From an uncultured Bacilli bacterium (lineage in GTDB: Bacteria; Bacillota_I; Bacilli_A; RF39; UBA660), in NCBI GenBank assembly GCA_947632325.1, contig CANROU010000001.1, positions 7,997 to 71,996 on the forward strand: 64,000 nucleotides of DNA, read 5' to 3'. The notes beneath the pieces were generated by a model that had not been told where the DNA came from, ran no database searches, and saw nothing but the letters and a program-made list of their open reading frames with translations. This document shows positions 17,166-17,250 of this stretch, piece after piece (position 1 is the first letter of the stretch; the number at the start of each line of letters is the position of its first letter). The position numbers were made by a program, and so were the translations under genes.

Positions 17166-17216
17166 AACATCTACTCCTTATCACACACCATTATATAATA
17201 ACCCCCCCCCTTGTCA
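16780..17216. repeat. direct repeat copy 2 (LXG N-terminal coding region + 5'UTR + promoter)
   Basis: See copy 1. The two copies are 3404 bp apart. Confidence 0.85.
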
Positions 17217-17250
17217 ACTTTTTGTTACCTTTTTTGACATCGATTTAATT
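17179..17250 (-). promoter_or_regulatory. promoter of LXG3 operon: TTGACA-A-G9-TTATTA-TATAAT (16-nt spacer)
   Basis: The C9 run at 17202-17210 sits in the same position as the C10 run of the LXG2 promoter. Confidence 0.55.

Follow-up and report, generated by a model that had tools for sequence, protein, structure and literature searches.

Poly-G promoter spacers in front of type VII secretion toxin units of an uncultured gut Bacilli bacterium and their likely variation by slippage

Three promoters with a G tract in the spacer

We analysed a DNA stretch of 64,000 nt (the window), in which three units containing toxin genes are read from the minus strand, each behind a promoter with a run of G residues in the spacer (P1, P2 and P3; Table 1). 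Promoter P3, in front of a 780-aa ORF, reads TTGACA-A-G9-TTATTA-TATAAT at 17217-17190 on the minus strand and matches the hexamer consensus at 12 of 12 positions; its G run, written out, is GGGGGGGGG. It belongs to the sigma-A/sigma-70 type, both hexamers are perfect, and its spacer is largely an uninterrupted G run, that is, a homopolymer tract of about 8 nt or more lies between recognisable hexamers. An earlier note on this DNA had described this layout together with the 16-nt spacer, and the minus strand bears it out. The note had also claimed that the promoters of the second and third toxin (LXG2 and LXG3) differ by one G, and we find the same difference, with G10 and a 17-nt spacer at P2 and G9 and a 16-nt spacer at P3. 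While both of these G-tract promoters are real, a third copy, P1 (8791-8761), had been overlooked.

Table 1. Promoters, predicted hairpins and genes of the three units in the window
Feature	Position	Strand	Remarks
Intrinsic-terminator-like hairpin and T run, end of M23/PcsB-like gene, upstream of P3	17341-17365	-	predicted
A-rich block 5' of P3 -35 (TGTCAAAAAAGGTAACAAAAAG)	17218-17250	-	
P3 -35 TTGACA	17212-17217	-	12/12 consensus match
P3 A between -35 and tract	17211	-	
P3 G9 homopolymer	17202-17210	-	part of 16-nt spacer (17196-17211)
P3 TTATTA	17196-17201	-	
P3 -10 TATAAT	17190-17195	-	
P3 ribosome-binding site AAGGAG	17174-17179	-	
ATG of 780-aa ORF	17163-17165	-	
780-aa polymorphic toxin (LXG3)	14823-17165	-	C-terminus unique
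Rest of LXG3 unit	13929-14854	-	two small ORFs of ~93 aa (14573-14854; 14276-14566); DUF4176 13929-14279
AT-rich hairpin followed by U run, between LXG3 unit and P2	13835-13910	-	terminator-like; z = -3.6
P2	13786-13814	-	TTGACA 13809-13814, A, G10 13798-13807, TTATTA, TATAAT 13786-13791; 17-nt spacer
LXG2 unit	9010-13761	-	1230-aa toxin 10069-13761; 224-aa ORF 9386-10060; DUF4176 9010-9393
Hairpin AAGAGCU...AGCUCUUUUU, between LXG2 unit and P1	8810-8860	-	terminator-like; z = -3.2
P1	8761-8791	-	TTGACA 8786-8791, T, G9 8776-8784, TCC, TTATTA, TATAAT 8761-8766; 19-nt spacer
P1 unit, first genes	829-8697	-	WXG100 8404-8697 and 8099-8389; WXG100-LysM 7576-8046
P1 unit, rest	829-8697	-	590-aa toxin 5787-7559; DUF4176 5444-5782; EssC-type FtsK/SpoIIIE ATPase 829-5424
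N-terminal domain common to the three toxins	16776-17165, 13372-13761, 7164-7559	-	

Such sequences are rare in the window. P1, P2 and P3 contain its only runs of G or C of 8 or more, and they are also its only matches to TTGACA-N15-19-TATAAT. For G runs of at least 8, we counted 7 overlapping matches at three sites in the 64 kb, with 0.26 expected, and none of 100 shuffles reached this number.

P2 and P3 belong to one duplicated block of 455 nt, which extends from about 30 nt upstream of the -35 element through codon 129 of the toxin ORF. Its 388 coding nt are identical between the copies, that is, codons 1-129 of the 780-aa ORF are the same as those of the 1230-aa ORF. Over the whole block the sole indel between P2 and P3 is one G of the tract, to which two SNPs in the leader have to be added. 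Together with P1, the window holds three paralogous copies of the promoter, leader and 5' coding block, each with a tract of its own.

Upstream of the -35 element, GGTAAC-AAAAAG is kept in P1, P2 and a homologous promoter without a tract (contig L063, described below), and it is found as TTAAC in the promoters of metagenome-assembled genomes (MAGs) of the Lapin series. The A-rich block at this place could be a UP-like element or an operator.

Judged from its sequence, the hairpin at the end of the M23/PcsB-like gene would insulate P3 against upstream transcription; P2 and P1 have terminator-like hairpins in the corresponding place. The P3 leader is only about 20 nt long, which leaves no room for a riboswitch, and no Rfam family was matched in the region around the promoters (5000-21000). 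Since a terminator-like hairpin precedes each promoter and the short leader lacks an Rfam match, each unit should depend on its own promoter, and on these predictions the promoter would be the main driver of the unit downstream.

Between the M23 terminator and P3 there is also a perfect 9+9 palindrome (TTTGGAAAA-T-TTTTCCAAA) at 17305-17323, about 90 nt upstream of the P3 -35 element. The same palindrome is present in the contigs L001-L004, and it could be either a second hairpin or an operator.

The toxin units and their shared N-terminal domain

The three large proteins have residues 1-130 in common (99% and 70% identity to the first) and diverge completely beyond them. No Pfam family matched the C-termini of the 780-aa and 1230-aa proteins, and the small downstream ORFs of 93, 96 and 224 aa gave no family match. 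The two ORFs of about 93 aa in the LXG3 unit are candidate immunity or accessory genes.

Known LXG toxins of T7SSb systems, for example Tel of Streptococcus intermedius or YeeF of Bacillus subtilis, combine an N-terminal helical targeting domain with variable C-terminal toxin domains. The window proteins resemble them in that the toxin genes adjoin genes for EssC, WXG100 and DUF4176 proteins and small downstream ORFs. On the other hand, their N-terminal domain has about 95 residues and a single WXG100-like helical hairpin rather than about 200 residues, it lacks a match to an LXG model, and toxins 2 and 3 have no genes of Lap-type partners in front of them (no ORF lies in the interval from P2 or P3 to the start of the toxin gene, where such a partner would be placed). 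The label LXG, which the earlier note had given to these proteins, did not hold up against the models that we used, Pfam PF04740 and the NCBIfam LXG models: there was no Pfam LXG match at E <=0.01 for the full proteins or at E <=10 for the N-terminal domains, and no NCBIfam match. We keep LXG2 and LXG3 as names, and the term should be read as a functional analogy rather than a demonstrated family membership.

A homologue search with the N-terminal 292 aa returned nothing, and an exhaustive HMMER search of 1.84 billion representative proteins found only 14 relatives of the N-terminal domain, which makes this helical hairpin of about 95 residues a nearly orphan family. In the AlphaFold (AF2) model, with a pLDDT of 73, helix 8-38 packs as a hairpin with helix 41-96, and a conserved motif, KRNTDxEVLNR, lies between the two long helices. 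Profile comparison of the domain with the WXG100 protein of the window and with PDB sequences gave nothing significant, and a Foldseek search of the PDB gave only generic helical hairpins, including EsxA/EsxB, at E above 0.4. As the profile, sequence and fold comparisons were all without significance, we do not assert that the domain belongs to the LXG or WXG100 families.

The secretion context is much clearer. Within 17 kb there are genes for an EssC-type ATPase, for three WXG100 proteins and for three DUF4176 proteins, and the synteny of this T7SSb locus is the same in three other contigs (L061-L063). In one relative (P0005) the N-terminal domain is joined to an ADP-ribosyltransferase toxin domain (ADPrib_exo_Tox); its locus has the syntenic WXG100, DUF4176 and EssC genes, and an ADP-ribosylglycohydrolase gene is found two genes downstream, after an ORF of 64-74 aa. 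In the three window proteins and P0005, a common N-terminal helical domain is thus followed by unrelated C-terminal regions, as in polymorphic toxins. That the window toxins are polymorphic toxins of type VII secretion is well supported as far as the secretion context goes; their targeting domain is new or very divergent, and the shared 130 residues look like an undescribed type VII targeting domain.

The nearest relatives by the M23 protein (72-80% identity; L064-L067) have the M23 gene followed by uvrB or unrelated genes, and neither a secretion island nor G runs were found in them. Since the neighbours of M23 differ in these contigs, the whole island of secretion and toxin genes in the window, from 17250 downwards, is accessory.

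Tract length within the species and in other gut bacteria

We compared tract lengths at orthologous sites in contigs of other assemblies. P3 has G9 in the window, L001, L002 and L003 (4/4 assemblies), and P1 likewise has G9 in the window, L042, L070 and L071 (4/4). P2 has G10 in the window, L038 and L041, and G9 in L039. The three further assemblies with G9 at P3 and the two with G10 at P2 each carry the leader SNPs that are specific to their copy. The deviating contig (L039, ERZ27249559) shows 0 mismatches in an alignment of 1,090 nt with the window, and its one gap is the G9 versus G10 at P2. Within the species the tract length therefore deviates in 1 of 12 orthologous observations, on a contig at 3.8x coverage; these observations are only partly independent, because the comparison contigs (2-4x coverage), taken from few related samples and probably from a single study, match the window at 99.8-100% identity, and homopolymer lengths from short-read assemblies carry some error. 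Mutability of the tract, as the earlier note had assumed it, is consistent with the G9 of P2 in L039 and with the varying lengths in other species, whereas the constant G9 of P3 in 4/4 assemblies speaks against it.

Two contigs, L004 and L040, stop at G6 within the tract. We rejected these ends as a sign of heterogeneity, since the break falls in the 30 nt that P2 and P3 share and is an effect of a k-mer repeat. The species itself was found only in about six ENA/Logan samples, and a species-specific pattern (GTAACAAAAAGTTGACAWGGGGGG) had no match in JGI metagenomes.

One of the contigs differs in gene content. In L001 (10616-11071, corresponding to window 13375-17234; NODE_695 of ERZ27249080), a P3-type promoter is directly joined to the 1230-aa ORF. 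The contig has 18 SNPs per 11 kb relative to the window, the toxin-3 module of 3,404 nt is absent, and the junction lies within the 455-nt repeat. This is either a real recombinant without one toxin module or an assembly collapse.

The evidence for mutability from the same promoter type in other organisms is stronger than the thin evidence within the species. In other gut Firmicutes, the contigs L019 and L051 show 99.2% identity over 8 kb, with one gap in the alignment, G13 against G10. In front of the same lipoprotein gene, L006, L031, L049 and L052 have G8, G8, G9 and G10, with spacers of 17, 16, 17 and 18 nt, respectively.

Furthermore, we scanned genome collections with the pattern AAAAAGTTGACAWG6+. 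The rabbit-gut "uncultured Bacilli" MAG Lapin-032__bin119 contains at least 23 copies (contigs) of TTAACAAAAAGTTGACAT-G8-10-TAGTTT-TATAAT, which precede the genes for a family of paralogous, N-terminally anchored proteins of 570-770 aa, and MAGs related to it have a few copies of a G-run promoter. This organism is related to that of the window, with 59% identity in FtsX, 39% in M23 and 50-78% in other proteins. In the Lapin family G10 would give a 17-nt spacer; the spacer seen is mostly 16 nt, then 15, and 17 once. Over about 45 diverged promoter copies, the G run is uninterrupted in essentially all.

Several observations concern the Lapin family (L005-L033; MAGs Lapin-032__bin119 and Lapin-030__bin56) itself. 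The C-terminal region of its proteins is conserved and has weak ASH, CBM_56 and FGE-sulfatase-like hits. The promoters have two types of leader, one of 40-46 nt and one of about 120 nt with a hairpin, and many of the contigs stop at the promoter. L018 and L021 have a common upstream flank but a different tract length and a different downstream gene. In L014 (6110-7976; Lapin-032), FtsX, the M23 peptidase, a terminator and a G9 promoter follow each other in synteny with window 17190-19477, and there the promoter drives a gene for a surface protein rather than a toxin.

Relatives with the syntenic WXG100 operon are without the G run. For example, GGTAAC...GTTGACA and the leader are retained at the homologous promoter of L063, a closer relative, where CTCAACAAATTTTTGTTA takes the place of the run. 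This is an ordinary AT-rich spacer, so the G tract is dispensable for promoter function and is a derived addition to a working promoter.

The motif was absent from the viral contigs of IMG/VR, and we dropped a phage origin of the promoter on this ground. Genome-scan matches in Pedobacter, Planctomycetia, Verrucomicrobia (tuf promoter, G8) and Sedimentisphaerales were set aside as chance hits. In the two verrucomicrobial assemblies (L035 and L058), tuf (EF-Tu) lies about 330 nt downstream of TTGACAT-G8-CGGCGGG-TATGAT, with G8 in both; here a housekeeping gene has a promoter-like site ahead of it whose G run is apparently stable, and the pattern matched it by chance.

Proposed switching of promoter spacing, its alternatives and its parallels

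We think that the G tracts probably serve slipped-strand phase variation, or "volume" variation, of promoter spacing on the type VII toxin modules. Slipped-strand mispairing in replication would add or remove single G's, and each gain or loss would shift the distance between -35 and -10 in steps of 1 bp and so change the strength of the promoter. Strength would be maximal at 17 bp, reduced at 16 or 18, and close to silent at 15 or fewer or at 19 or more. Three separate units would stand under their own switch, namely the WXG100/EssC core with toxin 1, toxin 2 and toxin 3. With three separately insulated promoters, we propose that one population can hold cells with different toxin repertoires. 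In the majority genotype that was sequenced, P2 (G10, 17 nt) is predicted to be fully active, P3 (G9, 16 nt) reduced and P1 (G9+3, 19 nt) weak. We infer that transcription depends on the number of G's by analogy, since sigma-70-type promoters have their optimum at 17 nt and precedents are known (PMC7864442); the rate and the reversibility of slippage are inferred as well.

The earlier note had expected P2 and P3 to be in different expression phases. If porA is a guide, one G below the optimum means lower rather than silent expression, so that the expectation is plausible, though the two promoters would probably differ only in degree. With perfect hexamers, promoters usually remain active at a 16-nt spacing, and 16 and 17 nt are both in the active range of sigma-70-type promoters, so the difference in phase may be modest. 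Since G9 with 16 nt is the commonest state in the Lapin family, 16 nt might even be the normal working state. On the other hand, the 19-nt spacer of P1 does not easily fit a working secretion system, whose core this promoter heads, unless other promoters exist. To reach 17 nt, P1 would need G7; the core thus seems to be switched down, or another promoter serves it.

Potentially, P2 and P3 could be nothing but an ordinary strong constitutive promoter cassette that was duplicated with the 5' end of the toxin gene, with the G run as inherited baggage whose changes in length are neutral. The common 455-nt block, the invariant G9 of P3 and P1 in every assembly seen, the activity of sigma-70-type promoters at either spacing and the prevalence of 16 nt in the Lapin family would all fit such a history. 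It is unlikely nevertheless, because DNA of 29% GC would very rarely contain 8 or more G's in a row, because the run stays uninterrupted in the diverged copies of several species, and because it always sits in the spacer, in a register where one of its lengths yields 17 nt. Furthermore, L063 shows that the run was added without being required, and indels concentrate in the tract.

An improbable alternative is that the G run and the TAAC-AAAAAG-TTGACA block form the operator of a lineage-specific transcription factor, in which case control would be deterministic and tract length incidental. This would account for the conservation past the -35 element in the window, L063 and the Lapin MAGs, and one could also point to an inverted repeat (TGTCAA-N16-TTGACA) that spans the block at P3 and to the palindrome upstream of it. 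However, P1 and P2 have only an imperfect form of the inverted repeat, the window has no gene for a regulator linked to these promoters, and the block is kept in L063 without the run, so that the two are separable; length polymorphism at orthologous sites would not be expected of an operator either. An operator would also be compatible with control by spacing rather than exclude it; in the tpr promoters of T. pallidum, poly-G is combined with the binding of a CRP homologue (PMC7864442).

Finally, that the one-G difference between P2 and P3 is a homopolymer sequencing or assembly error is very improbable: all comparison contigs have low coverage, homopolymers are error-prone and L039 is the single discordant contig, but both lengths recur in further assemblies alongside the copy-specific SNPs, and the 3 nt between G13 and G10 (L019/L051) are too large for a typical miscall.

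We also considered a wider reading of slipped-strand variation, which we put forward tentatively and with less confidence than the switching of spacing itself. The promoter could be a lineage-wide contingency cassette of uncultured, cell-walled, low-GC gut Bacilli, present in dozens per genome for surface proteins and here providing independent stochastic switching of a secretion core and of toxin-immunity modules. If this were true, clonal populations would keep yielding different sets of weapons and immunity, including cells that are sensitive to the toxins of their siblings, and this would amount to phase-variable interbacterial antagonism. Should the immunity genes be co-transcribed with the toxins, cells that are switched down would be exposed to their siblings' toxins, which raises the question of what becomes of immunity in those siblings whose toxin-immunity operon is switched down. 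Slipped-strand variation further predicts mixtures of tract lengths in a population and a step-wise change of transcription with the number of G's.

Promoters with a homopolymer in the spacer are a textbook device of small-genome, host-adapted pathogens (Neisseria, Treponema, Mycoplasma), and the same kind of mechanism is known from porA, fetA, opc, tp0126/tpr and Mycoplasma vlp. The vlp genes of Mycoplasma hyorhinis form a multigene family with a conserved promoter, leader and 5' cassette, in which each copy has its own poly-A spacer tract and is switched ON or OFF combinatorially. The Lapin-032 family and the three copies in the window have the same layout; the vlp tracts differ in being poly-A instead of poly-G and in serving lipoproteins of a wall-less organism, with no secretion-system toxins.

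In porA of N. meningitidis (poly-G) and fetA of N. gonorrhoeae (poly-C), the tract between the hexamers sets the spacer and the transcription and varies by strain (PMC5320596 and the discussion in PMC7864442), gonococcal fetA and porA being further examples of homopolymer promoters (PMC5320596). These are genes for outer-membrane proteins of Gram-negative bacteria, with imperfect hexamers and measured switching, whereas here we deal with an uncultured low-GC Bacilli bacterium, perfect hexamers, type VII toxin modules and a predicted switch. The poly-G between -35 and -10 of T. pallidum tp0126 was tested experimentally and is optimal at 17-nt spacing (PMC7864442), and N. meningitidis porA behaves similarly according to the discussion of that paper. 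In tp0126 and the tpr genes (E, G, J, F, I, L), G7-G11 tracts lie in or next to the promoters of a paralogous family, as they do here, and about G9 is commonest, with G8 and G10 as minor populations (PMC7864442). T. pallidum differs in being a spirochaete with outer-membrane targets, and most of the tpr runs lie just upstream of the transcription start, outside a canonical spacer.

Slippage-prone tracts also accompany type VII genes in S. agalactiae (a G-tract in essC and an A-tract in esaA) and in ESX-1 of M. tuberculosis, and an influence of such tracts on the system was proposed or demonstrated (PMC9900821; PMC11898584). The tracts of S. agalactiae differ from those in the window in that they are inside coding sequences and act by frameshift, and neither there nor in ESX-1 does a tract lie in the spacer of a dedicated toxin-module promoter. 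Among the titles and abstracts that we searched, none pointed to a promoter with a tract in its spacer, be it on a T7SSb toxin module or in gut Firmicutes. A full-text search on phase variation of LXG toxins gave only PMC9900821, with its coding-sequence tracts, and, judging by title and abstract, work on the enterococcal suppression of C. difficile sporulation, and phase-variable interbacterial antagonism was not found described for type VII secretion. In summary, the mechanism is already well known, while its placement on type VII secretion toxin modules was not found described in the literature searched. With up to two dozen copies per genome, and placed in the window before three separately insulated type VII units, the device now turns up in uncultured gut Firmicutes too, which suggests a part for stochastic switching in the competition and surface variation of commensal Gram-positive bacteria as well.

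Two minor observations concern homopolymers outside the promoters. L042 differs from the window over 3.7 kb only by A4 versus A5 at window position ~8398 (minus strand), in the ribosome-binding region between two WXG100 genes. Furthermore, a G7 run (6825-6831, minus strand) lies inside the ORF of the 590-aa toxin, in codons for Glu-Gly-Gly, and since one slip there would cut the protein short near residue 243, this run is a candidate translational switch.
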